Shown: piece by piece, positions 23,727-63,960 of the stretch
How positions within the stretch are numbered: position 1 is the stretch's first letter
Layout of the letters: every line of letters starts with the position of its first letter
Sequence record: CP132319.1
From: a plasmid
Reading direction: 5' to 3' (one strand)
Length of the DNA stretch: 64,000 nt
Notes under the pieces: model-generated
Told to the model about the DNA's origin: nothing
Database searches by the model: none
Seen by the model: only the letters and a program-made list of their open reading frames with translations
Program-made: the position numbers and the translations under genes

Positions 23727-24461
23727 CCGCAGCGATACCCGCTTCTCAAGCTCGGCCGCCTGTTCCTTGCGCTCGCTGTAGCGGTCGGTGAGATAGGCCG
23801 AAGCATCGCGCGTGAGAATGGTGAACTTCACCAGTTCTTCGCAGACGTCCACGACCCGGTCGTAATAGGACGAGGGCTTCATCCGGCCGTCGGCGTCGAA
23901 TTCCTGATAGGCCTTGGCGACGGAGGACTGGTTGGGGATGGTGATCATCCGCATCCAGCGGCCGAGAATGCGCATCTGGTTCACTGCATTGAAGGACTGG
24001 CTACCGCCCGACACCTCCATAACGGCAAGCGTTTTGCCCTGCGTCGGCCGGACCGATCCGACCGAGAGCGGAATCCAGTCGATCTGGGACTTCATTATCC
24101 CGGTCATCGCGCCGTGGCGTTCCGGGCTCACCCAGACCTGCCCTTCCGACCATTGCGAAAGATCGCGCAATTCTTGCACCTTCGGATGGCTCGCCGGCGC
24201 TTCGTCAGGGAGCGGCAGGCCCTTCGGGTCAAAGATACGAACCTCGCATCCAAGGCGTTCGAGCAGCCGGCGGACCTCGAATGCGAGCAGGCGGCTATAC
24301 GACACCTCACGCAGCGAGCCGTAGAGGATCAGGATGCGCGGCTTATGCGTTGAGAACGCCGGACGCAGGGCATCGAGATCTGTCGAATATAGGTGATCGC
24401 CCTGCAGTGCTGGGAAAGTGTCAGGCAATGCGCTTTCCTTCCTGGTCGAGGATCTGTTCAC
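23718..24461 (-). CDS. arsH: NADPH-dependent FMN reductase ArsH
   Basis: 247 aa, flavodoxin-like ...[20 protein letters not shown]... ArsH signature, in the ars cluster. Confidence 0.85.
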
Positions 24462-24846
24462 CGTCCTCCTTGAAGAACGGTCCCCTGAAGGTGTCGGGCA
24501 GGATGTCGAGCACCGCCTCGGACGGACGGGCGAGCCGGGTGCCGAGCGGTGTCACGACGAAGGGGCGATTGATCAGGATCGGCGTTGCGATCATCGCGTC
24601 GAGCAACTGCTCGTCAGTCAGGTCTGGGTTGTCCAGACCGAGTTCGGCATAAGGCGTGCCTTTCTCGCGAATGGCTTCCCGAACGTTCAAGCCAGCGTCC
24701 GCGATCATCGTCGCAAGCTGCTCGCGCGTCGGCGGGTGCTGCAAATACTCGATGACAACAGGTTTGATCCCGGCAGCGCGGATCAGCGCCAGCGTGTTGC
24801 GGGACGTCCCGCAGGCGGGGTTGTGATAGATGGTCGCGTCCATGGT
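24421..24846 (-). CDS. arsC: arsenate reductase ArsC (glutaredoxin-dependent family)
   Basis: [25 protein letters not shown] matches the E. coli ArsC N-terminal catalytic Cys motif. Start taken at the internal ATG of ORF 24421-25077. Confidence 0.85.
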
Positions 24847-25904
24847 CAGTGCCTTTCGGTGGCGGTGGTTCTGGAAACAGCGGGGGCGGCCTCGTACCAA
24901 TCTTTCGAGCGGTTCACGATCCACACGACCGAGAGCATGACCGGAACCTCGATGAGAACGCCAACGACGGTGGCGAGTGCTGCGCCGGACTGGAAGCCGA
25001 ACAGGCTGATGGCTGCGGCAACTGCAAGCTCGAAGAAATTGCTGGCGCCGATCAGGGCTGACGGGCCGGCAATGCAATGCCGCTCACCGGTCATCCGGTT
25101 GAGTAGATAAGCCAGCCCGGAGTTCAGATAGACTTGGATCAGGATCGGCACGGCGAGCAAGCCGATGACGGCTGGCTGGGCGATGATCTGTTCACCCTGA
25201 AAGGCGAAGAGCAGAACCAGCGTCGCAAGTAGCGCCACCAGTGAGATCGGCTGCAACCTTGCCAGCACGCCATCCAGTGCCCGGGCCTTACCGCCAACCG
25301 TGAGGCGGCGGCGGATGACCTGCGCGATAATGACGGGCACGACGATATAGAGGGCGACGGAAAGAACGAGCGTATCCCAAGGCACGGTGATCGCGGAGAG
25401 GCCGAGCAGCAAGCCAACGATCGGAGCAAATGCGACGACCATGATGGCATCGTTCAACGCGACCTGAGACAGCGTGAACAATGGCTCCCCGCGCGTCAGG
25501 TTGCTCCAGACGAACACCATAGCGGTGCAGGGAGCCGCGGCGAGAATGATCAGTCCGGCGATATAGGAGTCGATCTGGTCGGCAGGCAGGTATGGGCGGA
25601 ACAGCCAACCGATGAACAGCCAACCGAGGACGGCCATGGAGAACGGCTTGACGGCCCAGTTGATGAACAAGGTCACGCCGATACCGCGCCAGTAGGTGCC
25701 GACCTGCGCCAGAGACCGGAAATCGATCTTAAGCAGCATCGGAATGATCATCAGCCAGATCAGGATCGCGACGGGAATGTTCACCTTGGCGACCTCGGCC
25801 GCGCCGATGATCTGAAAGAGACCGGGCATGAGATGGCCGAGGGCGACACCGGCGATGATGCACAGGAACACCCAGATGGTCAGATAACGCTCGAACGTGG
25901 ACAT
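24846..25904 (-). CDS. acr3: arsenite efflux permease ACR3
   Basis: 352 aa, 10-TM, ACR3/ArsB-type N-terminus MSTFERYLTIWVFLCIIAGVALG. Confidence 0.9.
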   Translation of the reverse strand: MSTFERYLTIWVFLCIIAGVALGHLMPGLFQIIGAAEVAKVNIPVAILIWLMIIPMLLKIDFRSLAQVGTYWRGIGVTLFINWAVKPFSMAVLGWLFIGWLFRPYLPADQIDSYIAGLIILAAAPCTAMVFVWSNLTRGEPLFTLSQVALNDAIMVVAFAPIVGLLLGLSAITVPWDTLVLSVALYIVVPVIIAQVIRRRLTVGGKARALDGVLARLQPISLVALLATLVLLFAFQGEQIIAQPAVIGLLAVPILIQVYLNSGLAYLLNRMTGERHCIAGPSALIGASNFFELAVAAAISLFGFQSGAALATVVGVLIEVPVMLSVVWIVNRSKDWYEAAPAVSRTTATERH

Positions 25905-26431
25905 CAGGCGGACTTTCCTTGCGGCGACGTCGAACCTTCCATCGCACCGATCTGGCGAAGCTTGGTCTCAAGCGCCATGTGATCGAAGGATGCCAGCGGC
26001 AGGCTGACGAACGCCGCGATCCGGTTCTTGAGGAAACGCGCGGCCTGAGCGAAGGCGCGCTGGATCTCGATGTCCGAGCCAGCGACGGCGGCGGGGTCTT
26101 CGACACCCCAATGGGCGGTCATCGGATGGCCGATCCAGACCGGGCAGGCTTCGCCGGCGGCGCTGTCGCAGACGGTGAAGATGAAATCCATCTGCGGCGC
26201 GCCGGGCTCCGCGAACACATCCCAGCTCTTCGACGAGAAGCCCGTCGATGGATAGCCCAGCGCTTCCAGCTCCTTCAGGGCATGCGGATTGACTTCGCCC
26301 TTCGGCTGGCTGCCGGCGGAGAAGGCTTTGAATCGTCCGCCGCCCTCCTTGTTGAGAATGGATTCGGCGAGAATAGAACGAGCGGAATTGCCCGTGCAGA
26401 GGAACAGCACGTTGTAGGTCTTGTCGGTCAT
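25904..26431 (-). CDS. arsC2: arsenate reductase, LMW-PTP family (thioredoxin-coupled ArsC)
   Basis: CTGNSARS P-loop at the N-terminus, 175 aa. Confidence 0.85.
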   Translation of the reverse strand: MTDKTYNVLFLCTGNSARSILAESILNKEGGGRFKAFSAGSQPKGEVNPHALKELEALGYPSTGFSSKSWDVFAEPGAPQMDFIFTVCDSAAGEACPVWIGHPMTAHWGVEDPAAVAGSDIEIQRAFAQAARFLKNRIAAFVSLPLASFDHMALETKLRQIGAMEGSTSPQGKSA

Positions 26432-26446
26432 GGTCGTGGTCCGTGG

Positions 26447-44111: not shown

Positions 44112-44156
44112 GGCGTCACGACACGAAAGTGGTGAATCTGTCCGACATTTGAGAAC
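44112..44156. repeat. left terminal inverted repeat (IR-L) of the Tn3-family element
   Basis: GGCGTCACGACACGAAAGTGGTGAATCTGTCCGACATTTGAGAAC. Confidence 0.8.
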
Positions 44157-44165
44157 ATATGGTGA

Positions 44166-47132: not shown

Positions 47133-47297
47133 TGTCTCGGCTTCCAGTTTCGTTGCGGAAACCGCAGCGAACTGGAAAACACATGTCCGACAAACGACCG
47201 TTTCGCGGCATCCACAGTTTTTGTCCGCAAACCTTGTGCTTGAACGGCAAATCGGACATTGTCCGAGTTCAACGAGAAAACGGACAAACCACGTCTC

Positions 47298-47879
47298 ATG
47301 ACCTCTATCGGCTATGCAAGGGTCTCCACCGGCGACCAGGACACCGCCCTGCAACTCGACGCTTTGCGCAACGCGGGCTGTGAAAGACTGTTCGAGGATA
47401 AGGCATCCGGCGTGAAGACTGACCGGCCCGGACTGGCGGAGGCGATCCGCTACGTTCGCGACGGCGACACGCTCACAGTCTGGAAGCTCGACCGCCTCGG
47501 TAGGTCGATGAAGCACCTCATTGAGATCATCACCGAACTGGAGGCCAAAGGCGTCGGCTTCCGATCCATCACCGAAAACATCGACACGACGACATCGGGC
47601 GGTCGACTGGTATTCCACCTGTTCGGCGCGCTGGCACAGTTCGAGCGCGATCTGATCAGGGAACGAACACGTGCCGGTCTACAAGCCGCAGAAGAACGCG
47701 GCCGACGCGGTGGCCGACAAGTCGTCGTAACCCCGGAGAAACTAGCCAAAGCCCGCCAGCATCTGGCGGCCGGTTTGAACGTCCGGGAGGCCGCGGCCCG
47801 CGTCAAAATAGGCAAAACCGCCCTTTACGAAGCTCTCAGGGCTGAAAAAGCAACGACATCTGCGGTTAAACCAACTTGA
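47298..47879 (+). CDS. tnpR: Tn3-family resolvase TnpR (serine recombinase)
   Basis: MTSIGYARVSTGDQDTALQLDAL.... Divergent from tnpA, with a 165-bp res region between them. Confidence 0.85.
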   Translation: MTSIGYARVSTGDQDTALQLDALRNAGCERLFEDKASGVKTDRPGLAEAIRYVRDGDTLTVWKLDRLGRSMKHLIEIITELEAKGVGFRSITENIDTTTSGGRLVFHLFGALAQFERDLIRERTRAGLQAAEERGRRGGRQVVVTPEKLAKARQHLAAGLNVREAAARVKIGKTALYEALRAEKATTSAVKPT

Positions 47880-47890
47880 GTTCTGGATAC

Positions 47891-47935
47891 GTTCTCAAAA
47901 GTCGGACAGATTCACCACTTCCGTGTCGTGACGCC
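47891..47935. repeat. right terminal inverted repeat (IR-R) of the Tn3-family element
   Basis: Reverse complement GGCGTCACGACACGGAAGTGGTGAATCTGTCCGACTTTTGAGAAC. Confidence 0.8.
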
Positions 47936-48181
47936 TTCATTCTTGTAGTGACGGAATTTCTTCAGCGTCACCTCTTTGATGTCGTTCTTGTCCTTGAGGA
48001 AGGTGACCGTCAGCTTGACGCGGTTTTTTGTCTGAGGGAACGGCTGAACATATTCAACTTCCGTGCTGTCGTCATCGTGCGTGACGACATGGAAGAACTT
48101 CCCTTTGCCGTCCCGGAACTCGTTGCCGTAAATATGGTCGAGCCGGTAACCGCCAATGTACTCCTCGTCTGTTGCCATCAC
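47936..48181 (-). pseudogene. sduA: Shedu-like gene, 5' portion (N-terminal 81 codons), in frame with 43159-44111 once the transposon is removed
   Basis: MMATDEEYIGGYRLDHIYGNEFRDGKGKFFHVVTHDDDST.... Conceptual excision (keeping one TTCAT) restores one 397-aa ORF. Confidence 0.5.
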
Positions 48182-51275: not shown

Positions 51276-51289
51276 TAAACTATAGTTTA
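51276..51289. promoter_or_regulatory. perfect 14-bp palindrome TAAACTATAGTTTA (candidate operator) between divergent genes
   Basis: Seen directly. Related copies at 18573, 11021, 11785 and 20171. Confidence 0.55.
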
Positions 51290-51863: not shown

Positions 51864-52181
51864 ATGCGGACTGTCAACCGTCACACCCTGCTCGGCCACG
51901 TCGGAAACATCATAAAGCTCAAGAATGTGCTAAAGGTGAACATCGCCACCAATCGCGAATGGCAGGCCGACGGCGATCGGAAAACCGCCACCGACTGGGC
52001 ACAGGTGACGATCCTCGACAAGAAGCAGGCCGAGTGGATCGAAGAAAATGTCGGGCCGGGCGATCTCGTCTATGTCGAGTCCCGGATCTCGAATTCCAGC
52101 TACGAACGCGATGGGGAACAGATTTATGCCTCCGACGTCATCGCGCAGCTCTTCAATCTCGTCTCGAAGAAGCCATCCTGA
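51864..52181 (+). CDS. ssb: single-stranded DNA-binding protein (plasmid SSB)
   Basis: 105 aa OB-fold: NRHTLLGHVGN...REWQADGDRKTATDWAQVTILD.... Confidence 0.75.
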   Translation: MRTVNRHTLLGHVGNIIKLKNVLKVNIATNREWQADGDRKTATDWAQVTILDKKQAEWIEENVGPGDLVYVESRISNSSYERDGEQIYASDVIAQLFNLVSKKPS

Positions 52182-52193
52182 CAAAAGGCCATT

Positions 52194-52611
52194 GGCCACC
52201 GCCCGTTCCGGTCGGCCGCGCTCTATGCGAAGCACGAAGCCAGCCTTCGGCCGTCTCCGCCGATCCCGGTGACGATCGCTTGTCCAGTCGGTGGCTATGC
52301 CCCCGGCACTGGGGCCCGACCGGGCCGCATCTCTGTTTCCGCCCCATGACAGCGCCGGCCGTTCGGATCAAGGGGCAGGCGCGGCACAGCCGCTTGTCGC
52401 GCCGGCAAAAAAACGGCTTTCCGCCTGCGGCCGAACCTTCCGTTTTTTCCCGTCACGACCCCTTGACCCGCCCGGCCGTCGCCGCAGGGCGGGCTTTCGC
52501 CCTCCCCGCTCCGTCCGGGGGAATGTCAGAGGCCATTCCCCCGGAAAGACCGGGGAGGCTTCGCCCAAGGGGGCTTCCCCTTCGGGAAACGGGAAACCAA
52601 GGAGACAGACA
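52194..52611 (+). repeat. copy A of a ~420-bp structured non-coding repeat ending at the start codon of the DUF932 gene
   Basis: About 95% identical to 55625-56049 and 59492-59912. The three copies differ by 1-bp and 7-bp indels. Contains hairpins (e.g. GGGGGAATG-N8-CATTCCCCC) and the SD AAGGAG. Confidence 0.85.
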
Positions 52612-53460
52612 ATGAGCATCTACACCGAGACCGCCCGTTTCGACACCGGCCGCGCCCTGACCGAAACCGAAATGCGCCGCATCGCGCCGTCGATCTTTGC
52701 CGTGACCGCCCATGAGAGCCGGTCCGAGCGTTTCAAACCCATCCCGACCATCGAGGTGTTGCGCGGCCTCATGAACGAGGGTTTCATGCCGGTCGGCGCC
52801 AAGCAGTCCCGCAGCCGCACTGAAGGCAAGGCCGATTTCACCAAGCACCTCATTCGCATGCGCCGCGTCGATGACCGCAAGGTCTATAATGTCGGCGATA
52901 CCGTCTGCGAAATCCTCCTCAAAAACGCCAATGACGGAACCAGCGCCTACGAACTGATGGCCGGGCTCTTCCGCGTCCGCTGCCTCAATTCCTTGGTGAC
53001 GCAGACCGGCACCATCGACGCCATCAAGGTCCGCCATTCGGGCGACGTACAGCACAAGGTCATCGAGGGAACCTATCGCGTTCTCGGCGAGGCCGAACGC
53101 ACCCTTGCCGCTCCGCAGGATTGGTCGACCATGCGCATGAACCCCGAGGAAGCGAGAATTCTGGCGGATGCCGCCTATGTTCTCCGCTTCGGAGATAGCG
53201 AAGGCGAGACGGCCACGCCGATCAAGCCGGAGCAGTTGCTAATCCCGCGTCGCCATGACGACCGCGCAAACGATCTCTGGACGACGTGGAACGTGGTTCA
53301 GGAAAACGCCATCAAGGGCGGTTTGCGTGGCGTCGGCCGCGACGATCTCGGCAGGCCGCGCCGCGTCAAGTCCCGCGCTGTCAATGGTATCGATCAGGAT
53401 ATCAAGCTCAACAAGGCCCTGTGGCTGCTGGGAGAAAGGATGGCTGCGCTGAAGTCGTGA
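52612..53460 (+). CDS. DUF932 domain protein (plasmid leading-region family)
   Basis: MSIYTETARFDTGRALTETEMRRIAPSIFAVTAHESRSERFKPIPTIEVL.... Confidence 0.6.
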   Translation: MSIYTETARFDTGRALTETEMRRIAPSIFAVTAHESRSERFKPIPTIEVLRGLMNEGFMPVGAKQSRSRTEGKADFTKHLIRMRRVDDRKVYNVGDTVCEILLKNANDGTSAYELMAGLFRVRCLNSLVTQTGTIDAIKVRHSGDVQHKVIEGTYRVLGEAERTLAAPQDWSTMRMNPEEARILADAAYVLRFGDSEGETATPIKPEQLLIPRRHDDRANDLWTTWNVVQENAIKGGLRGVGRDDLGRPRRVKSRAVNGIDQDIKLNKALWLLGERMAALKS

Positions 53461-53560
53461 GCATCACATTTATTGTTCCCGCAGGGACGCCTGGCCGTAA
53501 GGTCGGACGTCCCTTTGCATTTGCGGAACCGCGAGCTCGACCAGATCCGGTGGCCGTGTG

Positions 53561-53645
53561 CCTGCCCCTCACCGCATCGAGCGGCGCGGTCCAGGTCGAG
53601 GGGCGCCCCAAAGCCCCGCCCCTCGAACTCCCTTCCCGCCCATAG
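53561..53645. repeat. GC-rich ~85-bp repeat (second copy at 58652-58736) with a GGGGCGCCCC self-complementary core
   Basis: Shared ...CCGCATCGAGCGGCGCGG...GAGGGG(C/T)GCCCC.AAGCCCC.CCCCTCGAAC.CCC..CCCGCCCA. Confidence 0.6.
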
Positions 53646-53648
53646 CTA

Positions 53649-54644
53649 TTAGGATTTCGAGGACAAACCGTCCTGATCGCCCGCCTTGTCGAGCTGGTCG
53701 CGAATATAGGCGTCGATGTAGTCGAAGACTTCGACCGCGCCAGCATCCGTCTCAATCAGGTCGATCGGCCGCCGACCGCCGAGATGGGCGTTAGCTTGGC
53801 GCGCCCATTTCAGGATTTCGCCATCGGTGCGCAGCACCGGGCGGGCCATGTCCAGCATTGTCGCGAGATGGTGCGGCTTCGCATACCATGAATGCGGCTT
53901 TATGCTCGCACGGCGTCGGCCAGGGACGACATCCGGCAGTTGCGACGCGCGCAGTTCGTCCTCCGTGATATGCCGCCGGACCCAATGGGCCAGCTTTGCC
54001 AGCGAGACATTGGCTTCCCGCTCGAGGTCGCCACCAGCGCCAACCTTGCGGGTCGGTATAACCAGGCCGCGGACAATTTGCGGGCAACGCGCCTCCAGCA
54101 TTTCCAGGGCCGGCGCAAGGTCCGTATCGTTGGTGACGAGCACCACCTGGTCGATCTCTCCGCTCAGGGCGTCATCATAAAGCTGGAGCGCCAGATTCAC
54201 ATCCGACTGCTTCTCCTCCAGCTTCCAGACCTGGATCTTGTCGCAATCGCGCGGCCACCGTTTCGGGTCGTCGGCTGGAACAATATGCTGGTTGGCCTTG
54301 TAGAGGGAATAGTGACCCATCACGAAAGAAAGCCGGCCGCCGCAATGCGACGTCAGCGCATTGTGATAGTGGGCCTGCGACGAGACCGAATCCTCGCCCT
54401 TGGAAGCACTCTCGATGATCTTGGCGGTGAAATACTTGATCGCGCAGTCCGGATGCAGGGCCATTGTTGCCGGATCGGCTTCCGGCGCCGCGCGATAGAG
54501 GATTGTCGGCAGAATTTGCGTCTCGAACAGGCCCAGGACGTCAAGCCATTTGAACGCCGTCTTGCGCAGGCAGCCGTAATAAAGATTGTAGCCGTCGATA
54601 TAGACGCGTGTTCTTAACGCCGGCACTCCTTGCCCCCAAGACAT
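53649..54644 (-). CDS. NYN/PIN-like nuclease domain protein
   Basis: ...RVYIDGYNLYYG..., ...SDVNLALQLYDDA..., ...VVLVTNDTDLAPALE... (NYN acidic residues). 331 aa with an uncharacterised C-terminal half. Confidence 0.6.
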   Translation of the reverse strand: MSWGQGVPALRTRVYIDGYNLYYGCLRKTAFKWLDVLGLFETQILPTILYRAAPEADPATMALHPDCAIKYFTAKIIESASKGEDSVSSQAHYHNALTSHCGGRLSFVMGHYSLYKANQHIVPADDPKRWPRDCDKIQVWKLEEKQSDVNLALQLYDDALSGEIDQVVLVTNDTDLAPALEMLEARCPQIVRGLVIPTRKVGAGGDLEREANVSLAKLAHWVRRHITEDELRASQLPDVVPGRRRASIKPHSWYAKPHHLATMLDMARPVLRTDGEILKWARQANAHLGGRRPIDLIETDAGAVEVFDYIDAYIRDQLDKAGDQDGLSSKS

Positions 54645-54671
54645 AAAAAAACCGGCTTGCGCCGGCTTTTT
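54645..54671. terminator. bidirectional intrinsic terminator-like hairpin (A7-CCGGC-TTGC-GCCGG-CT5)
   Basis: Seen in sequence immediately upstream of the NYN gene start. Confidence 0.45.
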
Positions 54672-55237
54672 CCCCCAACCGCCCGGAGCCCATGTCTCTC
54701 AGGATGCTGGGTTAGTTGTTAGCTCTCAACATAGTGTCATGGGCCTCGCTCGTCAACCGGTTCTGACCGTCGCCCATGCGTTTGAACCAGCGATTTCGCC
54801 GTAATTTCTCGTAAAATAGGCATTTTACAATCAATCTGCAAGCAGTCACCAACTGCCCTGGTCACGGTCGAGAGCCGGAGAATAGGTCAGCGGCGGTTGC
54901 GGTCCGTCCGGATGCCGTTGAGCGGGCGTAATCTTACGCTCTATCTTTTGGAGCCTCGACCATGCGTCTTGAAGTGCTCGTAGCCGGCCTGATCATGGCC
55001 TTGATCGCCCACAACTGCAAATGCCGAAATCGCGGCGTCTTGTTCAAACGCGGCGAGACATCCTGCCTTCGTGTCGACGGCGGCTCCTATCTCGCGCGCT
55101 GCGAGATGAAGCTGAACGTCTCGTCCTGGACCAGGATTCAGGATGGTTGCCCATTGACCAAACGGGTGCTGCCGAGAACGACGCTCGTCAACTAATCGCT
55201 GCACCAGGCGGCGTCGGATGCGTTGTGTAGGGCGAAA

Positions 55238-55540
55238 CTAGCCCTCACCGATCGTCTCGATGACCGCGTGGTCCTTGACGATGGCGGCAAAACCATCGTT
55301 CAGCAAAGCCATGACCGCCGCGGCCGTCATCGGGACGGTTTCGATCCTTTCCAGGCAAAGCGGGCTATCGTTGGGATCGCGACCGGCGAGCAGATCAGCA
55401 CGCAATTCCAGCAACGCCTGTTTCGCCATGTCCCTGTCATCGTAGAAATAGGGCGGTACGGAAGGGTCGTCCCAGCAATGTTCACCAGGGCGCGATTTGC
55501 CGGTCACGGTATAGAGGATAAGGGTTGGCGCGGTCTCCAT
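55238..55540 (-). CDS. hypothetical protein (100 aa)
   Basis: ORF only. Confidence 0.35.
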   Translation of the reverse strand: METAPTLILYTVTGKSRPGEHCWDDPSVPPYFYDDRDMAKQALLELRADLLAGRDPNDSPLCLERIETVPMTAAAVMALLNDGFAAIVKDHAVIETIGEG

Positions 55541-55624
55541 TGCAGTCCTCCTTCAGGGTGAATCCCTGTCGTATCGGAGCCTAGCTGCAGGATCGTCGCC
55601 GGCAACTCGCAGAAATGCTAGTTG

Positions 55625-56049
55625 GGCCACCGCCCGTTCCGGTCGGCCGCGCTCTATGCGAAGCACGGAGCCAGCCTGCGGCCGTCTCCGCCGATCCCGG
55701 TGACGATCGCTTGTCCGGTCGGTGGCTATGCCCCCGGCACTGAGGCCCGTCGCCGGGCCGCATTTCTGTTTCCGCCCCATGACAGCGCCGGCCGTTCGGA
55801 TCAAGGGGCAGGCGCGGCACAGCCGCTTGCCGCTTGTCGCGCCGGCAAAAAAACGGCTTTCCGCCTGCGGCCGAACCTTCCGTTTTTTCCCCGTCACGAC
55901 CCCTTGACCCGACCGGCCGTCGCCGCAGGGCGGGCTTTCGCCCTCCCGCTCCGTCCGGGGGAATGTCAGAGGCCATTCCCCCGGAAAGACCGGGGAGGCT
56001 TCGCCCAAGGGGGCTCCCCTTCGGGAAACGTAAACTCAGGAGACAGACC
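55625..56049 (+). repeat. copy B of the ~420-bp structured repeat, ending at the DUF736 start codon
   Basis: See copy A. Has a 7-bp insertion (CCGCTTG) relative to A and C. Confidence 0.85.
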
Positions 56050-56370
56050 ATGACCGAACTCGCAAACTTCATCCGCATCAACGAAGACAACACGATCAGC
56101 GGCAACATTGCCTCGATCTCTTACGACCTCGATATCACCGGCGAGGCCTTCACCAGCACCAACGCAAAAGCGCCGGTCTACCGCCTTTTTGCCAAGTCCC
56201 CGCGTGGTCGGCGCATCGAAGTCGGCGGCATCTGGCAGAAGAAGAACCAGACCGGCGGCGACTATCTCAGCCTCTCCGTGAACACCGGCCATGGGCGGCT
56301 CAATGCAAATCTTGGCCGCTTTCCCGGTCAGGACGACGAAGACCTGATGGCGGTGATTCCGTGGGACTGA
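56050..56370 (+). CDS. DUF736 domain protein
   Basis: 106 aa: MTELANFIRINEDNTISGNIASISYDLDITGEAF...GGIWQKKNQTGGDYLSLSVN.... Confidence 0.55.
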   Translation: MTELANFIRINEDNTISGNIASISYDLDITGEAFTSTNAKAPVYRLFAKSPRGRRIEVGGIWQKKNQTGGDYLSLSVNTGHGRLNANLGRFPGQDDEDLMAVIPWD

Positions 56371-56458
56371 TGGCGCGACCGAAACACCTGATGACCGAGG
56401 GGGATCGTTCCCTTCGGCGTACTCGGAAACCTTCGACGACGATTTCAAGGATATCATC

Positions 56459-57248
56459 ATGGATGCCCCCAACATCGACACGCTCGGCGTTGCGCTGGTG
56501 GAGAAGGGCTTCGCGCCCAACCTCGCCCTTCTCGACATCAACAATTCCCTGTCGGTCCCGCAAAGTTTCGACATGCCAGCGCCGTGGAGCCTGCCGTCGC
56601 GCATGTTCCGCTTTCCAATCGAGGTTTGCCGCCCCGATGACGATCAGCCGCGCACCCTCGGCCTTCGCCATCCCCTCTTGGCCGATCATCCCTACGTTCG
56701 GCATGTTGAGACCCGGCTGGGTTTCGAGATCGCGCGCAGCGGCGCGCCGAACCGTCACGGCTATTCCACTGCGCCGACCGCCCGCTGGTGGCATGCAGTC
56801 GATCTGGTCATGGCGGGGAAATGGCGCGAATTGCTGGAAACGCGAGAATTTACCGAGCGGGACTGCATCATGCGGGCCGTCGCCTTCGGATGCCGCTATT
56901 CCCATCACGAGGACAAGAAGGCATCCGACTATCTCTCCGTCCCAGACGCCCGAAAGGTCATGGATGCAGTCGGTTCGAAAGAACCCGGCGAACGCAGCGC
57001 GACGATCCGCACCTTCTCGGCCCCGAGCCTTTGCCGTCAGGAAAAGCGCGGAGCATTGGCCGATCAATACCGGCCGCCTGTCGGCCGAGGCCGTGGCATG
57101 GGGAATGATTTTCGGCATTGAGGATGGCTGGTTTCGCCATGACCGCGCCGGTTTCCTTCAATGGTCCGAGCTGGGGCGCGAGCGCTATGCAGCAGGCGAT
57201 AGCGCCTCATATGTGCAGGCAAGCGGTCAAGCCGCCTTCGCCTTCTAG
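56459..57248 (+). pseudogene. hypothetical protein with an apparent frameshift (frame of 56459-57121 switching to the frame ending at 57248 near 57040-57120)
   Basis: Frame 2 codes a plausible protein to 57121. The distal part of ORF 56361-57248 (..MIFGIEDGWFRHDRAGFLQWSELGRERYAAG..) also looks coding, while its proximal part is R/S/P-rich nonsense. Confidence 0.35.
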
Positions 57249-57279
57249 GCACTGGTCCAAGCGAGAAAGGAAAACCCCC

Positions 57280-57465
57280 ATGGGTAAGCAGACCGTTACC
57301 ATTATCCAGACATTCCGCACCGAACGCCGGATCACCGTGGAGGTCAATGCGGAAGATCACGAAAGCGTCATCGAGAAATTCGAGAGTGGCAGCGCCGAGG
57401 TTCCTGTCTTTGACGATCCGAGGTGGAAAACCGAATGGAATTTGCAAAGCGAGGATTACGAATGA
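57280..57465 (+). CDS. small hypothetical protein (61 aa)
   Basis: MGKQTVTIIQTFRTERRITVEVNAEDHESVIEKFESG.... ATGA-coupled to the next ORF. Confidence 0.4.
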   Translation: MGKQTVTIIQTFRTERRITVEVNAEDHESVIEKFESGSAEVPVFDDPRWKTEWNLQSEDYE

Positions 57466-57770
57466 GCCGCTATACGATCACCCTCCTGAAAGGCGAGAGA
57501 ACGGACGACGAGGCTGTCATCGGATTCGACCCGCCGTTGCGCACCTTTTTCCTTCAGGGCTTCGACACGGACGACGATTTCGGCTCGCCGGAAATCTGGC
57601 TCGGCACGCTCTTGGAGGAATTCCCGACCTTGGAAGGGGTCATCGAGGCGGCGCGCCGGCAAGGCTACGTGGTTCGCGGCCTTGAGCGCGCCGACATGAT
57701 TGCGCTTTTGGCGGAGGCGGGTCACGACTATGAGCCTTCCATCGCCGAGAAACTTGGTTTCATCCTGTAG
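57462..57770 (+). CDS. hypothetical protein (102 aa)
   Basis: MSRYTITLLKGERTDDEAVIGFDPPLRTFFLQGFDTDDDFGSPEIWLG.... Confidence 0.4.
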   Translation: MSRYTITLLKGERTDDEAVIGFDPPLRTFFLQGFDTDDDFGSPEIWLGTLLEEFPTLEGVIEAARRQGYVVRGLERADMIALLAEAGHDYEPSIAEKLGFIL

Positions 57771-58192
57771 TTCCCCTCTGCCCCGCCATCATCTCGGAGG
57801 GGCAGGACCGCTTTTGACCGATGGCGCCCGCATCGAGCGGGCGCGCATCGGTTGGGGGAGCCCTCGCCCCTCCCCTCGCTCTCCCCTTCCCGCCCAAGCC
57901 TCGCAAATCGGCCATGCCTGGCTAGATGCGGGGGTTCCGGATTCTGGTACAGGGCTAGCTAGAGTCGATTGCGCCTCTCGGCGGACCGCGCAGCTACATG
58001 AGTTTAAGCGGACGGGCCGAATCTTAAAAATAGATTCGTTTTGACCCAAAGACTTACGCTATCCGGTCTAGACCGATTTGCGGCGCCGAGCGCGCACACC
58101 CCCTTGGCGAGCCTCTGTGGTGTGATATTTTGCGCAGCAAGCAGTCCGGTTCTTTCACGTTTTCTTTTGGTGAAAGGACCAACACGATGAAG

Positions 58193-58330
58193 CCCCTCAA
58201 CAAGCTCAATCTCGAAGTCGTCGGCATCAGCGTTGGTGCTGAGGGCTACTTCGCCATCTCCGCCGTTCTCTTGACCTTTCTTTTGGCAGCGGCGGGCTTT
58301 TTGGCGGGCCGTAAGCTTGGCTGGTGGTGA
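58193..58330 (+). CDS. small membrane protein (46 aa), paralogue of the 38833-38958 product; possible type-I-toxin-like peptide
   Basis: MKPLNKLNLEVVGISVGAEGYFAISAVLLTFLLAAAGFLAGRKLGWW with AAAGGA 8 nt upstream. Confidence 0.35.
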   Translation, partial: PLNKLNLEVVGISVGAEGYFAISAVLLTFLLAAAGFLAGRKLGWW

Positions 58331-58581
58331 TGGTTTCCCGCTACCGGAAATCAAAGAGCAGCTTGTCCGCGCTCTTTTCTTTCTGCCTGTTTCCCGATGA
58401 TGATGCCCGTTTTCCAGCCGCAGCGCCGTGAGGACGGCGCGGCCGCGGCCGCAGCGAGCCGCAGGCGAGCGGAGCAGGCGGAGGAAACCCGCGCTCCCCA
58501 ATAGCGCCGTAGGGTTTTCCGGAGCCTCGTGGGAAACGGGCGGTTTTCCATGATGGTGATTTTCTTCGGTATCCTGGTGGA

Positions 58582-58630
58582 CCACTGCCCGTTCCGGTTG
58601 GGCGCGCTCTATGCGAAGCACCGAGCCAGA
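58582..58630 (+). repeat. partial (5' 50 bp) copy of the ~420-bp repeat, fused to the GC-rich 85-bp repeat (58652-58736)
   Basis: CCACTGCCCGTTCCGGTTGGGCGCGCTCTATGCGAAGCACCGAGCCAG matches the start of copies A-C. Confidence 0.6.
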
Positions 58631-58946
58631 CTTCTACAGTCTCCGCCGTTTGCCTGTCCCTTGCCGCATCGAGCGGCGCGGGACAGGCGAGGGGTGCCCC
58701 GAAGCCCCACCCCTCGAACACCCCTGCCCGCCCAAGAAAAAGCGGAGCGCTGCGAGCGGGCGCAGTCGGTCCCGGCTCGCCCTGCGGGCCGCTATGCTGA
58801 GCCTCCTGCGGCTGCGCTCCGTCCGCTCTCGCGCGACGAGAATTCCCGAAATCCCGCCCAAGGGCGGCGCGATGCCACCTCCGATGCTCTTCATCGTCAG
58901 AGGACAGCGCCTGCTCGTTTCACATCACGGCGGCGCGTCCCGCGCG

Positions 58947-59306
58947 CTACGCGCCCCCTCCCCCGGCGCGGCGTCGCTGCGCTACGCCCGCCCGCCCGCC
59001 CACAAAGCCACTCGATTTGCGCCATGGAAAGCGTCTGGCCGTAGCAGCCGCGTTCTTGTAGGTTGCCTTTGCCGCGATCTCGTCGTGATACAGTTGCGAC
59101 AGGTCCAGCTTTTGCGGCACGACGCTTCGGTCGGGACAAATCTGCTTGACCTCATGGATCGACACTACGTTCTTGACGCCGGCGGCTTTGGCGTCCCTCG
59201 GACAGACCATGACGGCTATGCGGCCGGTTCTCGCAAACGGCACAACACCGAACGGGCGACCGCGCTCCCCCTTGTTGCTCCACCGAGGTAAAACCAACGA
59301 AATCAA
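58947..59306 (-). CDS. hypothetical protein (119 aa; distal part may be non-coding)
   Basis: MISLVLPRWSNKGERGRPFGVVPFARTGRIAVMVCPRDAKAAGVKNVVSIHEV.... Confidence 0.3.
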   Translation of the reverse strand: MISLVLPRWSNKGERGRPFGVVPFARTGRIAVMVCPRDAKAAGVKNVVSIHEVKQICPDRSVVPQKLDLSQLYHDEIAAKATYKNAAATARRFPWRKSSGFVGGRAGVAQRRRAGGGGA

Positions 59307-59491
59307 GATGATTTGTTCGATATCGTCAAGTTATCGCAGGGTCGGCTCCGCCGGAAATATGGGCGAGCAAAGTCTACCCATGCACAGTGAGGCATATAGG
59401 AATAATTGCTCGGAATGAGTTTATGTTCCTTATTTGTTCTTATTCCGATTTGGAGTCAATCTGTCTCGTATCGAGCATTGTGGATGGGAGG

Positions 59492-59912
59492 GGCCACCGC
59501 CCGTTCCGGTCGGCCGCGCTCTATGCGAAGCACGGAGCCAGCCTGCGGCCGTCTCCGCCGATCCCGGTAACGATCGCTTGTCCAGTCGGTGGCTATGCCC
59601 CCGGCACTGAGGCCCGCCGCCGGGCCGCATTTCTGTTTCCGCCCCATGACAGCGCCGGCCGTTCGGATCAAGGGGCAGGCGCGGCACAGCCGCTTGTCGC
59701 GCCGGCAAAAAAACGGCTTTCCGCCTGCGGCCGAACCTTCCGTTTTTTCCCCGTCACGACCCCTTGACCCGACCGGCCGTCGCCGCAGGGCGGGCTTTCG
59801 CCCTCCCCGCTCCGTCCGGGGGAATGTCAGAGGCCATTCCCCTGGAAAGACCGGGGAGGCTTCGCCCAAGGGGGCTTCCCCTTCGGGAAACGGGAAACCA
59901 AGGAGACCGACA
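59492..59912 (+). repeat. copy C of the ~420-bp structured repeat, ending at the ParB-like gene start codon
   Basis: See copy A. Confidence 0.85.
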
Positions 59913-61948
59913 ATGACCGATATCAATGCAGGAACCGAAACCATCATGGTGGCGCTGAACAAGCTCGACCGCGACCCCCTGAACGTGCGCAAGAGCTATA
60001 GCAAGGAAGGCATCGAGGAGTTGGCCGCGACCATTCGCGGTGACGGCTACCGCATTCTGCAGAACCTCATCGTCCGCAAAGGTGACAAACGGGGTCGCTT
60101 CTTTGTGACAGCCGGCGGTCGGCGCCATGCCGCGCTCGACCTTCTGGCGGAGTTGGGCGAGATTGCGAAGGATTTCGCGGTCGAATGCAAGGAGCGCAGC
60201 GCCGCCGAGGCGACCGAAATCAGCCTCATCGAAAACATGCAGCGGGAAGCCATGCACCCGGTCGATGAATACGAGGCGTTCCGCGTCATGGCCGACGCCG
60301 GGAAGTCCGTCGAGGATATCGCCGCCCGTTTCGGCACCACCGAGGTCATGGTGCGCAAGCGCCTCGCCCTGGGCCGTGTCGCCCCTGCCCTGCTCGATCT
60401 TTACCGCAACGAGAATATCAGCTTCCAGCAGCTTTCGGCCTTCACCGTGTCCGACGATCACGAAAGGCAGGTGGAAGTCTGGAATAGTTTGCCATCGTGG
60501 AATTGCGATCACCGCGCCATTCGTACTGCCCTGCAAGGCGAAGCCGTAAAGGCCACGGACAAGCGCATGAAATTCATCGGCGGGATCGACGCCTATGAAG
60601 CCGCTGGTGGAGCCGTCAAGCGCGATCTCTTCGATGAGCAGAACGGCGGCTATGCGCTCGACGTCGCTCTTGTCGAAAAGCTTGTCGGCGACCGGCTTGA
60701 AGCCGAGGCCGGAACAGTTCGCGGGGAAGGCTGGAAATGGGTGGAGGTCGTGCCGGTCATCCCGGACGAAGCCCATCGCATGCACCGGGTTTATCCCACC
60801 GACGTTCCGTTGACGGACGAGGAACAGGCCGAGGAGGAACGGCTGGAACACGAACATGACGAGCTGGCGGAGCAGATCGAGGCAGGGGTGGCCGACGGCG
60901 GGGCCGAGCCGCGCATCGAAGCCATTCGGGCGAGGCTGGCGGTTCTATCGACGGCGCAGGAAGCCTACGCCCCGGAGGACATCGCCAAGGCCGGTTGCTA
61001 TGTCACGATGGACTATTACGGCAATGTCGAAATCGAGCGCGGTCTTGTCCGGCCCGATGATGAAGTCGAGGCCGGAGACGAGGGGGAAGACGGCGACGAA
61101 AGCGCCGAAGGCGATAACGAGGAGACGGAAGCAGGTGAGATGACGGTTGCGCAGCAGCCCGAACAGCGCCCCGAACCGACGTTCAAAATTCCCGCCCTGC
61201 TTGTGCAGGAGCTTACGGCGCAGAAGACCGCCGCCATCCGGGCCGAGCTTGCGCATAATCCGGACGTCGCCCTCGCCGTCGTGGTGCATGCCATGCTGGT
61301 GAACCTCTTCGGCAACTACGGCGGCAATGAGTACACGTCCCTTGAGGTAACGGTGAAAAGCGAAAGGCTGGAAAACAGCATTGCCAATCCAGCGGAGGCA
61401 AGGGCATCGTGGCGATGGACGAACTCAAGGAAAACTACGGGCATACCATTCCGGGCAAGCCGAGCGATCTTCTGGAATGGTGCCTTGAGCAGCCGACGTC
61501 AACGCTTCTCGACCTCCTGGCCTATGCGGCGGCAAAGTCCGTCAATGCCGTGCAACACCCGCACTATGAGCGGAAGTCGCAGCGCGCCCATGCCGAACGG
61601 CTGGCACAGGCCCTTAAGATCGACATGACGCAGTGGTACGAACCGACCGGCGAAAACTACTTCGGCCGGATCAGCAAGGCGGGGATCAAGCAGGCGGTCA
61701 CCGAAGCCGCTGGCGAGGATTTCGCGCTCGGCGTTCCCGGCATGGAGAAGGCGAAAGCCGTGGAATATGCCGAACGGAAGATCACCGGAACCGGATGGCT
61801 GCCCGCGCCGATGCGGATTGCTCTCTCCGCCGAGCAGGAGCGCGAGCGGATGGCGGAGGCCGATGGCGAAGATGACGGCGTTTGCCCGTTCGACATCGAG
61901 GACAAGCCGAACGCCGAACACCAGCAGTTCCCCGAAGCAGCCGAGTAA
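59913..61948 (+). CDS. ParB-like nuclease domain protein (large leading-region ParB homologue), apparent frameshift near 61385-61410
   Basis: N-terminal ParB/Srx domain (..LNKLDRDPLNVRKSY.. ..VTAGGRRHAALDL..). The frame of ORF 59589-61628 becomes nonsense after ..ENSIANPAEARAS, while the frame of ORF 61409-61948 continues with plausible sequence (..VAMDELKENYGHTIPG..). Confidence 0.6.
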
Positions 61949-62085
61949 TCGGTTGCGGCAGGTCGCGCCAGTCTCCGGCGCGGCCTGCTCCCCTCGCTGA
62001 ATTTCCCAAAACCAGCCGCGATGAGACGCCGGGCATCGCCCCGGCGATTGGCGACGTGCGCCCTGCGGCCCGGATAGGTGATCCC

Positions 62086-62907
62086 ATGACCTCCCCCCGT
62101 CTCAATTCCATCGTCAAGCTGTTTGAAACCTGCCGCTACAAGCATGACCTCTACACCGTCTTTGGCGACTGGTGCGAATGCTCCGCCATATCCATGAGCA
62201 ATGCCGTTGATCAGGCAAACTTCGAGAAGCGCGAGGCTCGCTATGTCGAAATCGCTCGAAAATACGGGAGCGAAACCATGGCGATATTCTCGAAAATATT
62301 CGGTGAAGTGGTCATGGCGCTGGAGGAAAAGCCGCAGGACATCCTGGGCATGACGTTCCATGCGCTCGAATTGCACAACAAGGCGAGGGGGCAATTCTTC
62401 ACGCCGTATCCCATCTGCCAATTGATGGCCCGCATCATCGCCGGGAGCGCCGAGGACATGCAGCAGGCGATTGCCAAGCGCGGCTTCATGCTTGCGCAGG
62501 AACCCGCCGTAGGGAGCGGCGCAATGATCGTCGCTCTGGCCGAAGCCATCCTTGAAGCGGGCTTCAATTACCAGCAGCTTCTTCATGTGACCGCCGTGGA
62601 CATCGACCCGCGCGCCGTCCACATGGCCTATATCCAATTCTCGCTCCTGCACATTCCGGCGACCGTCATCGTGGGCGACAGCCTGGCAATGCGGTTTCGG
62701 GAGGAATGGCACACGATGGCCCATGTCATGGGCGGATGGTCGGCCAAGCTTCGGCACGCAAGAGAAAACGCCGGGGGGCAACCGGAGGCGGCTCCTTCTG
62801 TTGCCGTACCGCACCGGGCTGCGGTGGTCGCCGGTGGCCCCGCCGCGCCGAAGCAAGCGACATCCGCGCCGGTTATTGAGAGGAATGGGCAACTGCGTCT
62901 GTTGTGA
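62086..62907 (+). CDS. SAM-dependent methyltransferase-like protein (gamma-class N6-adenine MTase motifs X and I, no NPPY)
   Basis: ..GQFFTPYPICQLMARI.. (motif X) and ..LAQEPAVGSGAMIVAL.. (motif I). No D/NPPY/F tetrapeptide found. Confidence 0.45.
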   Translation: MTSPRLNSIVKLFETCRYKHDLYTVFGDWCECSAISMSNAVDQANFEKREARYVEIARKYGSETMAIFSKIFGEVVMALEEKPQDILGMTFHALELHNKARGQFFTPYPICQLMARIIAGSAEDMQQAIAKRGFMLAQEPAVGSGAMIVALAEAILEAGFNYQQLLHVTAVDIDPRAVHMAYIQFSLLHIPATVIVGDSLAMRFREEWHTMAHVMGGWSAKLRHARENAGGQPEAAPSVAVPHRAAVVAGGPAAPKQATSAPVIERNGQLRLL

Positions 62908-63322: not shown

Positions 63323-63697
63323 ATGACAGACCGGAAAATCACCGTTATCGACGGCGGTAGCGCGCAATACTGGAGGCAGCGGAAAGAAGGCTTCCGGCTT
63401 ATCCACGAGGCGGAGCGCGCTGCGGAGCGGCTGGCCGATGCACCGATGTATCTTCACGGCGGCTACGACGAGGATGGCGACGTGATCGCGATCGAAAACC
63501 TCCGCTCTCATGACGATATGGAGGATGCGATCCGGGCGATCGAGGCGAACGAGACGGCCGTGAGTATCCTCGTAGCGCAGGGACGCACAAGGATAGGAGG
63601 CTGCGAGATCAGGGCGGTGATCAAGGCGATGGCGCCCGACTATGAAGGCATCGAGGATCCGGAACGCAATGCGCTCTGGGGACCGGGCACCGACTGA
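63323..63697 (+). CDS. hypothetical protein (124 aa)
   Basis: MTDRKITVIDGGSAQYWRQRKEGFRL.... AAAAGGAGG SD 6 nt upstream. Confidence 0.45.
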   Translation: MTDRKITVIDGGSAQYWRQRKEGFRLIHEAERAAERLADAPMYLHGGYDEDGDVIAIENLRSHDDMEDAIRAIEANETAVSILVAQGRTRIGGCEIRAVIKAMAPDYEGIEDPERNALWGPGTD

Positions 63698-63774
63698 GAT
63701 GCAGGCGAAAAGCGGCTACGGCCGCCTTTCGCCTTTACCTCGACGAGTGAGCCCGGTCAGCCGGTTCGACCGGC

Positions 63775-63960
63775 CGACCAAGCTGATGAAAGAGGGGCAA
63801 GCCCCCTCTCAACACTCACCCCAATGGAGGAAGGGGCAAGCCCCCTCCTCCAAACCGCCTCCCCAAGGGAAGGGCCGGCCCCTCCCTTGAACCCACCCCT
63901 GGGGAAAGGGGACGGTTCCCTCCTCCCTTTCCCCAAGCCCCTATCCCTCTCCCTGGGGCG
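63775..63960. repeat. second cluster of poly-G/poly-C hairpin repeats
   Basis: GAGGGGCAAGCCCCCTC-type units repeated. Related to 62925-63110. Confidence 0.55.

Follow-up and report, generated by a model that had tools for sequence, protein, structure and literature searches.

Structured repeats at leading-region genes of a rhizobial plasmid, probable counterparts of the single-strand promoters of plasmid F

We analysed a 64,000-nucleotide (nt) stretch of the plasmid record CP132319.1 (hereafter, the window), in which a direct-repeat search and alignment revealed three full copies of a non-coding repeat, all in one orientation and each ending at the start codon of a different leading-region gene. 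Here we describe these repeats and their relatives, and compare them with the single-stranded DNA (ssDNA) promoters of conjugative plasmids, foremost the Frpo elements of plasmid F. The repeat unit is ~425 bp long with a GC content of 69%, and the copies are spaced by 3.4–3.9 kb. They were 96.9–97.4% identical over aligned positions, or 94.0–96.7% with indel columns counted, in agreement with the ~95% reported in an earlier reading of this DNA (hereafter, the sequence-only reading), whose edges for the three copies lie within 3–4 nt of those given here.

52191..52611, + strand (gene-sense; the minus strand is proposed to fold): repeat copy A, ending at the Shine-Dalgarno sequence (SD) and ATG of the DUF932 gene
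55622..56049, + strand: repeat copy B, ending at the SD and ATG of the DUF736 gene, with a 7-bp duplication
59489..59912, + strand: repeat copy C, ending at the SD and ATG of the ParB-like gene

The left edge of the similarity is abrupt (GGCCACCGCCC...), and the preceding flanks are unrelated among the copies. At the right end every copy reads AGGAGAC-N4-ATG, so that, as had been claimed, each runs to the SD and start codon (52612, 56050, and 59913) of a different gene, encoding a DUF932, a DUF736, and a ParB_N protein, respectively (Pfam). The copies differ by several 1-bp indels, one of 2 bp, and one of 7 bp, the last being a tandem duplication of GCCGCTT in copy B (55822–55835). Because these indels break every frame and leave none in common, a protein-coding repeat was ruled out and the repeats are taken to be non-coding, the conclusion that the sequence-only reading had drawn from the 1-bp and 7-bp indels. 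A miniature inverted-repeat or other transposable element was also ruled out: there are no terminal inverted repeats, the orientation is fixed, and an ATG always adjoins.

In gene-sense order, each element consists of a ~105-nt 5′ block, a small GGCCCG..CGGGCC hairpin, a ~155-nt hairpin (HP1), a 58-nt hairpin (HP2) that holds in each copy the 9-bp stem GGGGGAATG/CATTCCCCC singled out earlier, and a last hairpin (HP3) with the SD. The 5′ block was described with a covariance model (R1) of four hairpins, Ha–Hd, built from alphaproteobacterial sequences only; a reciprocal model (R2) was built from eight enterobacterial blocks introduced below. The strand predicted to be transferred in conjugation is referred to as the T-strand.

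52192..52299, minus strand: 5′ block of copy A (R1, 110.8 bits), four hairpins Ha–Hd with covariation; conserved linkers, in the minus-strand reading, GGACAAGCGATCGTNAC and ATAGAGCGCG
55623..55730, minus strand: 5′ block of copy B (R1, 111.5 bits), among the top R2 matches in the window
59490..59597, minus strand: 5′ block of copy C (R1, 113.6 bits), among the top R2 matches in the window
58578..58680, minus strand: degenerate 5′ block of a partial copy (R1, 33.3 bits)
52339..52493, minus strand: HP1 of copy A, a ~155-nt hairpin and the module with the strongest T-strand bias
55772..55934, minus strand: HP1 of copy B, predicted hairpin
59639..59794, minus strand: HP1 of copy C, predicted hairpin
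52500..52558, 55941–55998, and 59801–59859, no strand assigned: HP2 of copies A, B, and C, with little strand bias
52557..52614, 55997–56052, and 59858–59915, + strand: HP3, SD (AGGAGAC), and ATG of copies A, B, and C, without strand bias; proposed transcribed leader

The secondary structure is conserved, with compensatory changes, across homologous plasmids, as the sequence-only reading had anticipated. A non-redundant set of 42 full copies, mutually <96% identical, was assembled by a pattern scan (one genome per species) and nhmmer. Their minus-strand RNAalifold consensus has 76 pairs, 21 of them with compensatory double changes. For the lower stem of HP1, evaluated as 20 fixed pairs on an unfitted MAFFT alignment, 95.2% were paired and 9 of the 20 pairs showed double changes, compared with 26–60% paired when the partners were slid by 1–3 columns, and almost no shuffle was as good. 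HP1 falls into three subfamilies with unrelated apical sequences, yet each of these extends the helix. In the 5′ block, 92.5% of cells were paired and 18 of 25 pairs were compensatory across 86 distinct sequences (0 of 500 shuffles as good), in an R1 alignment that was itself fitted to the model, which favours structure. The sequence of the block is also strongly conserved and includes a CGATCG palindrome.

Both strands were folded, and the conserved long hairpin that had been expected (HP1) was stronger on the strand that nick motifs mark as transferred. With DNA parameters the minus strand was more stable in all 42 copies, by ~20 kcal/mol. Dinucleotide shuffles were used as the comparison because the minus strand is G-rich, and gave z-scores between −5.2 and −9.0 on the minus strand and between −2.2 and −5.7 on the plus strand, the minus strand being stronger in 10 of 10 copies. 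Per-module energies placed the bias in HP1 (−53.3 kcal/mol on the minus strand vs −40.4 on the plus strand) and in the 5′ block (−24.8 vs −19.6), in 42 of 42 copies for each; the bias was small in HP2 and absent from HP3. On the minus strand, the cells that are not Watson–Crick pairs were mainly G·T rather than A·C, both in the covariance-model alignment of the 5′ block (223 vs 26) and in the HP1 stem (~132 vs 3), and several of the wobble positions in these modules are invariant. A homology-free scan of 44–64 kb with sliding 300-nt windows singled out the same sites: the three repeats hold all 12 of its most stable minus-strand windows (−88 to −106 kcal/mol; scan mean −57.7, sd 12), and the 20 most strand-asymmetric ones lie in the repeats or at a repeat 3′ edge. 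Two other counts were dropped. A mismatch census with G-T pairing forbidden changed the fold and was dominated by purine–purine mismatches, and a comparison of G·U with A·C on the per-strand RNAalifold consensus, which have only six pairs in common, was circular; the per-module energies, the shuffles, the fixed HP1 helix on the unfitted alignment, and the covariance-model alignments replaced the latter.

These strand preferences bear on the alternative named in the sequence-only reading, that the repeats are a shared structured mRNA 5′ leader, i.e., a cis-regulatory RNA that controls translation, stability, or termination and is transcribed from a promoter at or before the repeat 5′ edge. The repeat does run exactly to the SD and ATG, the + strand RNA folds with a z-score of −4.8, and the + strand has terminator-like hairpins (GGCCCG..CGGGCC with a T-rich stretch, and A7...T6 at the HP1 apex). 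However, HP1 and the 5′ block are the more stable on the antisense strand in 42 of 42 copies, the antisense G·T pairs would be A·C mismatches in the mRNA, and the A/T tracts are absent from one subfamily. Because the flanks before the repeats are unrelated, there is no shared upstream promoter. Rfam searches at gathering and permissive thresholds returned nothing relevant in the window, the Frpo region, or F-like leading regions, the sub-threshold matches being to irrelevant families. A leader is thus disfavoured for the 5′ block and HP1, but the last ~135 nt (HP2, HP3, and SD), which have little or no strand bias, may act as one; as an account of the repeats we consider it quite unlikely. A trans-acting antisense RNA from the repeat minus strand would agree with the better-folding strand being antisense to the genes, but its promoter would have to sit in three unrelated coding sequences outside the repeat, and the repeat has no T-tract terminator behind its minus-strand end, which makes such an RNA extremely improbable.

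The strand that folds better is also the one that carries the predicted nick motifs in four of four related plasmids, the window itself having no origin of transfer (oriT). In three of them, GTCGAGTTTGT-ACC-ACAAACTTGAC-T-ATCCTG|CC lies on the minus strand directly upstream of the mobC and relaxase genes; in a Ti-type relative, an inverted repeat followed by ACGTATAATTGCG|CCCT (TATAATTGCG|CCCT; core TTGCG|CCCT) lies on the minus strand between traC and traA. We take the TATCCTG|CC and TTGCG|CCCT sites to be RP4-type and RSF1010/Ti-type nick regions, respectively, with the inverted repeat 5′ of the nick. In RP4 and RSF1010, the inverted repeat is located 5′ of the nick on the nicked strand (T-strand). 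The relaxase gene is co-oriented with the cassette genes in the relatives, and likewise in F and R46. Because the nick motifs are on the minus strand in the relatives, this strand is predicted to be the T-strand; transfer would then proceed leftwards, and the T-strand would be the template of the + strand genes.

The 3′ arm of HP1 on the T-strand, which is the arm that would serve as the non-template strand for rightward transcription, has promoter-like features at the following positions in the window.

52366..52371, 55799–55804, and 59666–59671, minus strand: −35-like TTGATC in the HP1 3′ arm of copies A, B, and C
52343..52348, 55776–55781, and 59643–59648, minus strand: CATGGG at the −10 position, 17 nt after TTGATC

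Across the family, TTGNNN, a spacer, and (C/T)A were detected in 41 of 42 copies, and the spacer is exactly 17 nt in 40. The −35 variants were TTGATC (n = 20), TTGACC (n = 13), TTGGCC (n = 3), and others (n = 5), and those at the −10 position were CATGGG (n = 23), CAGGGG (n = 14), TACGAG/TATGAG (n = 3), and CAGCGG (n = 1). The TCA/TGA pairs of HP1 are invariant while adjacent pairs covary, the 17-nt spacing is kept in three HP1 subfamilies with differing spacer and apex sequences, and the first 2–3 nt of the "−10" are bulged at the predicted hairpin base, just before a 6-bp GGGGCG/CGCCCC stem. The −35/−10-like boxes that the sequence-only reading expected in a long hairpin were therefore found as far as the TTG box and the 17-nt spacer are concerned, but the −10 is not canonical. 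As the −10 is weak by any consensus, the geometry is compatible with an ssDNA promoter and is not proof of one. The HP1 apex A/T tracts were considered as an UP element or a bidirectional terminator, and both were ruled out by the absence of the tracts from one subfamily.

A promoter in duplex DNA was sought as well. A consensus scan detected no sigma-70 promoter inside the repeats. The + strand has CTTGAC, the alphaproteobacterial −35 consensus, and in 28 of 42 copies no A-containing hexamer lies at the right distance behind it. A sigma-54 promoter in the 5′ block (GGCACG-N4-CAGC) was rejected by eye: the copies in the window read AGCACG and so lack a conserved GG in the −24 element, and CAGC stands where a −12 element would have TTGC.

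These results weigh on a second rival, in which the repeats are duplex promoter/operator cassettes made up of an ordinary, non-consensus alphaproteobacterial promoter and operators for a plasmid repressor, with a zygotic burst of expression as the recipient is without the repressor. Its model would be the conserved upstream (CUP) elements of the IncN plasmids pKM101/R46 (Delver & Belogurov 1997, as cited in PMC6289460 and PMC6294495). The layout is alike: CUP elements are repeats of ~0.4 kb that run up to the ATG of leading-region genes and are co-oriented with the relaxase gene. An Xre-type helix-turn-helix (HTH) gene is kept beside the repeat cluster in the window and its relatives (Pfam), and the strongly conserved 5′ block sequence with its palindrome and the + strand CTTGAC are further points in its favour. 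However, a CUP element of R46 (23212–23655) is not significantly structured on either strand (z-scores of −1.4 and −0.7, vs −5.2 to −9.0 for the minus strand of the rhizobial repeats) and has a canonical duplex promoter (TTGACT-17-GATAAT) with ArdK operators, whereas the rhizobial repeats have no duplex consensus promoter and no conserved −10 behind CTTGAC in 28 of 42 copies. CUP, with no significant folding and a canonical duplex promoter, is a different kind of element despite the similar layout; the rhizobial repeats resemble Frpo rather than CUP in the way they fold. Homology to CUP was rejected, as nhmmer and blastn detected no similarity between the repeat and R46 or CUP (homologues of ArdK/ArdR were not searched for). 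The likely operator of the HTH protein, TAAACTATAGTTTA, has seven sites in the window and none in the repeats, by which regulation of the repeats by the neighbouring HTH was ruled out, and a duplex site leaves the covariation and the strand-biased wobble pairs unaccounted for. We therefore regard duplex cassettes as unlikely. A weak R1 match was detected in R46 itself (23777–23879; 13.4 bits, E = 0.07), on the presumed T-strand just upstream of one CUP and inside another repeat family (22066–22164, 23759–23882, and 26264–26387); IncN plasmids may carry a diverged version of the block.

By BLASTN, the repeat is conserved and multi-copy in relatives, as had been expected, with 169 places in ~100 PLSDB plasmids and up to seven per plasmid. 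The hosts include Rhizobium, Agrobacterium, Shinella, Sinorhizobium, Neorhizobium, Martelella, Nitratireductor, and others. The copies are without exception co-oriented with the gene behind them, i.e., DUF932 (n = 20), ParB-like (n = 13), DUF736 (n = 13), DUF3846 (n = 6), or a 337-aa protein without a Pfam match; other family members precede methylase genes as well as ArdC and DUF3846 genes. A start codon adjoins all 59 copies that reach the element 3′ end, via a GGAG-type SD in 53 and directly in six (one subfamily), so that the translation start belongs to the repeated unit. Identity tends to be higher among the copies of one plasmid (94–97% in the window) than between copies from different plasmids (median 76%).

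The 5′ block was also found alone, with other downstream sequence, in Bosea, Mesorhizobium, Martelella, Agrobacterium larrymoorei, and Rhizomicrobium, where the stand-alone blocks precede ArdC or DUF3846 genes. The partial copy in the window is of this kind. The sequence-only reading had given it 50 bp (58582–58630); it exists, but its size was understated, since it spans 58578–58650 by sequence (86% identity) and 58578–58680 by R1. It corresponds, in diverged form, to just the first ~100 nt of the element; the sequence behind it is different and GC-rich, and holds no convincing gene. GC-rich repeats (families D5 and D6, e.g., GCCCC.CCCCTCG..C.CCC..CCCGCCCAAG(AAAAAGCGG)) follow this block within 58578–59480 and occur also at 53553–53645 and 57866–57898. 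They are similar to the downstream part of the element as it occurs in Mesorhizobium and A. larrymoorei, and the region behind the partial block is possibly a decayed cassette of another subtype.

We then compared the repeats with ssDNA promoters. Frpo1 and Frpo2 of F are 92% identical and 5 kb apart (PMC9849209), and the operons behind them are expressed from the incoming single strand (PMC9849209; PMC12672017). Such promoters are multi-copy, strand-specific, and located upstream of genes for SSB, ParB, methylase, and anti-defence proteins (PMC9849209; PMC11541004; PMC12672017; PMC7736820). The rhizobial repeats share with Frpo1/2 and with ssi1–3 of ColIb-P9/pESBL (class 1) that they are multi-copy, highly similar, in one orientation, and in the leading region. 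The F repeats are ~600 nt long and end ~20 nt before the ssb and ygeA start codons, comparable to the rhizobial ones ending at the SD and ATG. Folding is also alike, as the z-score of Frpo2 is −7.1 on the T-strand and −5.1 on its complement (−5.2 to −9.0 and −2.2 to −5.7 in the rhizobial repeats), and both kinds have a ~100-nt multi-hairpin block at the gene-distal end. The cargo is homologous for the DUF932, ParB-like, and methylase genes: the DUF932 protein in the window is 43% identical to that of the operon behind Frpo1 (E = 2e-75), and across ~500 aa the ParB-like protein shares 32% identity with the ParB-family protein behind Frpo2 (E = 4e-51).

The two also differ. Frpo forms one ~350-nt hairpin, in contrast to the 155-nt hairpin and several small ones of the rhizobial repeats, which in addition have 69% GC, a non-canonical −10, and alphaproteobacterial hosts. 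The rhizobial cassettes lie beyond repABC, 9–20 kb from the nick, and ssb is not under a repeat. Non-homologous classes of ssDNA promoters exist in IncF/IncI plasmids (PMC12672017), and the pESBL ssDNA promoters are poorly expressed in S. meliloti (PMC12672017). The class 2/3 promoters of pESBL and F (Wen et al. 2025, PMC12672017) are likewise large T-strand hairpins upstream of leading operons; they have no Frpo homology and were found by a folding-energy scan, and a similar scan singles out the rhizobial repeats. As described there, they differ from the rhizobial repeats in having mapped start sites and reconstituted consensus boxes.

A further rival would have no promoter in the repeats. 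Frpo transcripts prime DNA synthesis (PMC7736820), and the ssp2 hairpin stalls conversion in F (bioRxiv 10.64898/2026.01.09.698686), and the rhizobial repeats might be no more than T-strand DNA-processing signals (ssi/primosome priming or a roadblock) whose position before genes is incidental. The T-strand bias and the covariation would fit this equally well, and the 5′ block has no promoter-like boxes. However, a start codon adjoins 59 of 59 copies, the TTG-17-(C/T)A geometry is conserved, and the genes behind the copies are ones that ssDNA promoters drive in F, and we consider a purely DNA-processing role very unlikely.

Between the repeat and Frpo, nhmmer detected no whole-element similarity, and whole-element homology was rejected, the block being the sole match. 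Prompted by a short blastn match, we searched the 16-kb leading region of F (NC_002483) with R1. The best two matches, at positions 6091–6187 (21.9 bits, E = 6e-5) and 11479–11575 (15.8 bits, E = 2e-3) of that region, or about 58090–58186 and 63478–63574 of the full record, both fall on the T-strand. They occupy the gene-distal end of Frpo2 and of Frpo1, respectively, which is also where the block sits in the rhizobial element. The alignment common to the rhizobial and F blocks is ACGGAGCC-(small hairpin)-GTCTCCGCC-(CCC/GGG hairpin)-..ATC.C.., in which the hairpin sequences differ; the gene-sense consensus of the block is ACGGAGCC-hairpin-GTCTCCGCC-hairpin-TNAC(G/C)ATC(C/G)C. R1 also matches intergenic T-strand sites in the leading regions of Serratia, Citrobacter, Klebsiella, and "Kacie_13" F-like plasmids, and the enterobacterial blocks show compensatory differences, including GGAGAC/GGCTCC vs AGAGAC/GGCTCT. 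The F-type block was found by BLAST in at least 5000 enterobacterial plasmids. In the reverse direction, the top two R2 matches in the whole window were the 5′ blocks of copies B and C, at E = 0.08.

A metagenome scan with the exact pattern of the block gave at least 120 loci. Among the matches listed, about half are F-type; the rest have 34–71% GC and inner hairpins that are unrelated but self-complementary. R1 scores on the metagenomic loci are continuous, from 121 to 16 bits, and intermediates link the rhizobial and Frpo blocks. In a fitted alignment with these loci, 91% of cells were paired, double-change cells numbered 268 (vs 88 in shuffles), and G·T exceeded A·C (115 vs 15). The genes downstream include those for ArdC, ParB-like, DUF932, DUF736, DUF3846, coupling, methyltransferase, and YAcAr proteins. 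On two of the metagenome contigs, the gene ~720–760 nt downstream of the block is that of a TrwB-type coupling protein, which is not an establishment gene. To judge from these alignments, the block is probably homologous across the rhizobial, enterobacterial, and metagenomic elements, and the evidence for the block shared with F is modest. Sequence strings of the alphaproteobacterial and F versions of the block were found in none of the papers searched. It is possible, though doubtful, that the four-hairpin block is an ancient T-strand signal marking the upstream edge of early-expression cassettes from Enterobacteria to Rhizobiales and to metagenomic elements of 34–71% GC; the adjacent promoter hairpin would then have been re-invented in each host lineage, and the block would be the conserved core of ssDNA promoters or ssi elements, recognised by some conserved factor of the host, for example RNA polymerase, SSB, or part of the primosome.

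Given these patterns, we lean, with a little more than even confidence, towards the repeats being Frpo-like T-strand cassettes, with a putative ssDNA promoter and possibly also a priming site or roadblock, and thus probably the rhizobial counterpart of the F single-strand promoters. After conjugative entry, the T-strand would fold into the ~105-nt four-hairpin block and the ~155-nt HP1, whose 3′ arm would present TTGAYC, a 17-nt spacer, and a bulged (C/T)A(T). Transcription by the RNA polymerase of the host would start at the base of HP1, with the T-strand as template, and continue past a ~135-nt leader (HP2, HP3, and SD) into the DUF932 gene, the DUF736 operon, and the ParB-like/methylase operon. 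Once the complementary strand is made, the hairpins would be lost and expression would stop. The hairpins may also supply primers or stall complementary-strand synthesis, as with Frpo and ssp2 in F. Initiation by RNA polymerase, the start site, the transient (zygotic) expression, and the role of the four-hairpin block are the steps that we infer here. The Frpo/ssi-like element proposed by the sequence-only reading is thus partly supported: structure, strand, copy number, and TTG-17 spacing agree with it, the homologous cargo and the probable shared block go further than an analogy, and it falls short in the canonical −10 and in the control of ssb.

Several observations weigh against Frpo-like cassettes. 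As to folding, the composition of the G-rich minus strand (160 G vs 130 C) alone favours folding, and the shuffles attribute about one third of the strand stability difference to composition; the + strand also folds significantly (z-scores of −2.2 to −5.7) and has its own G-U-containing RNAalifold consensus. As to transfer, the window ends before oriT, and the cassettes are 9–20 kb from the nick with parA-repCBA in between. A degraded 5′ block in the plasmid pSmeRU11b (20001–20078), which is rich in insertion sequences, is oriented opposite to traA; this block is isolated, with no gene behind it, and no other context was found that departs from the T-strand rule. As to the promoter, the −10 position (CATGGG/CAGGGG/TACGAG/TATGAG) is far from TATAAT or CTATAT, the + strand of copy A has a comparable TTGACC-16-CAGGGC, and no repeat stands in front of ssb. 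As to the block, the R1 E-values are rough, with one match in a coding region that looks like a false positive at E = 0.004, and R2 reaches only E = 0.08 in the window. On balance, the evidence favours Frpo-like cassettes over the duplex, mRNA-leader, and DNA-processing rivals, some of which could coexist with them.

Single-strand promoters explain how the anti-defence and establishment genes of a plasmid can be expressed while the incoming strand is still uncopied, and have so far been demonstrated only in enterobacterial IncF and IncI plasmids. We found no description in the literature of an alphaproteobacterial ssDNA-promoter family or of the shared block. For early gene expression in alphaproteobacterial conjugation, including that of symbiosis and Ti-type plasmids, a distinct family in Rhizobiales with support from covariation would be a test system. 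That the block is shared with Frpo and with many metagenomic elements points to a component conserved among them. The block may serve as a practical marker for leading regions and T-strands and, if it is a true T-strand signal, as a sequence tag in any genome.

The genes around the repeats are as follows.

51864..52181, + strand: ssb (Pfam), directly upstream of copy A, with no repeat before it
52612..53460, + strand: DUF932 gene (Pfam), 43% identical to the F DUF932 gene behind Frpo1
56050..56370, + strand: DUF736 gene (Pfam), heading a run of + strand open reading frames (ORFs) that reaches ~57770
59913..61948, + strand: ParB-like gene (ParB_N, Pfam), frameshifted
61882..62907, + strand: N6 DNA methylase ORF (Pfam), downstream of the ParB-like gene

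The neighbourhood of ssb was correctly noted in the sequence-only reading, as ssb adjoins copy A; expression of ssb via the repeat was not upheld, since ssb lies upstream of copy A without a preceding repeat and the repeats therefore cannot drive it here. The ParB-like ORF that starts at 59913 stops at 61628 (571 aa), and its C-terminus is in another frame (61409–61948), which encodes the last 179 aa of 678-aa relatives with 98% identity; the frameshift reflects either a pseudogene or a sequencing error. The true start of the N6 methylase is probably internal to the ORF, because the gene of the relatives is 822 nt long. In relatives, the RefSeq ParB N-terminal-domain protein (20155–22458 in one related plasmid; 24132–26435 in NZ_CP084755) begins ~270 nt inside the repeat, and this start upstream of the conserved SD and ATG is probably a spurious N-terminal extension.

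The region at 50.5–64 kb of the window is 98% identical to Shinella repABC plasmids (pShin-07) and to the "Roseateles" XES5 plasmid. The gene order in these relatives is, from the left, HTH (minus strand), hypothetical, ssb, repeat, DUF932, and, further on, repeat and DUF736 operon; then the partial copy, repeat, ParB-like, methylase, hypothetical, repABC, parA (minus strand), mobC, and relaxase. The plasmid of "Roseateles sp. XES5" (NZ_CP084755; labelled Betaproteobacteria, UNVERIFIED_ORG) is 98% identical to the Shinella repABC plasmids over 13.5 kb, so that either the organism assignment looks wrong or the plasmid looks recently transferred. At 44113–47940, the window shares 100% identity with a Tn3-family transposase/recombinase segment from a plasmid of Shinella sumterensis; this points to a transposon beside the leading region that moved recently.

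The 14-bp palindrome TAAACTATAGTTTA is located at 51276–51289, within the divergent promoter region between the HTH gene and the hypothetical gene–ssb. The seven sites in the window (with at most 3 mismatches; 0.13 expected) include 11020, 11785, 18573, 20171, 37447, and 50938, and similar sequences are also present in the parA–mobC intergenic region of the related plasmid NZ_CP084755. Judged by this distribution, it is probably the operator of a plasmid-wide repressor, the local HTH protein. The sole 10-mer shared with the repeats (TGACGATCGC) is compatible with chance. Near the window end, ahead of the position of repA in the relatives, the minus strand is unusually stable at 63600–63950 (−84 kcal/mol per 300 nt, with a GC-corrected residual of −15).

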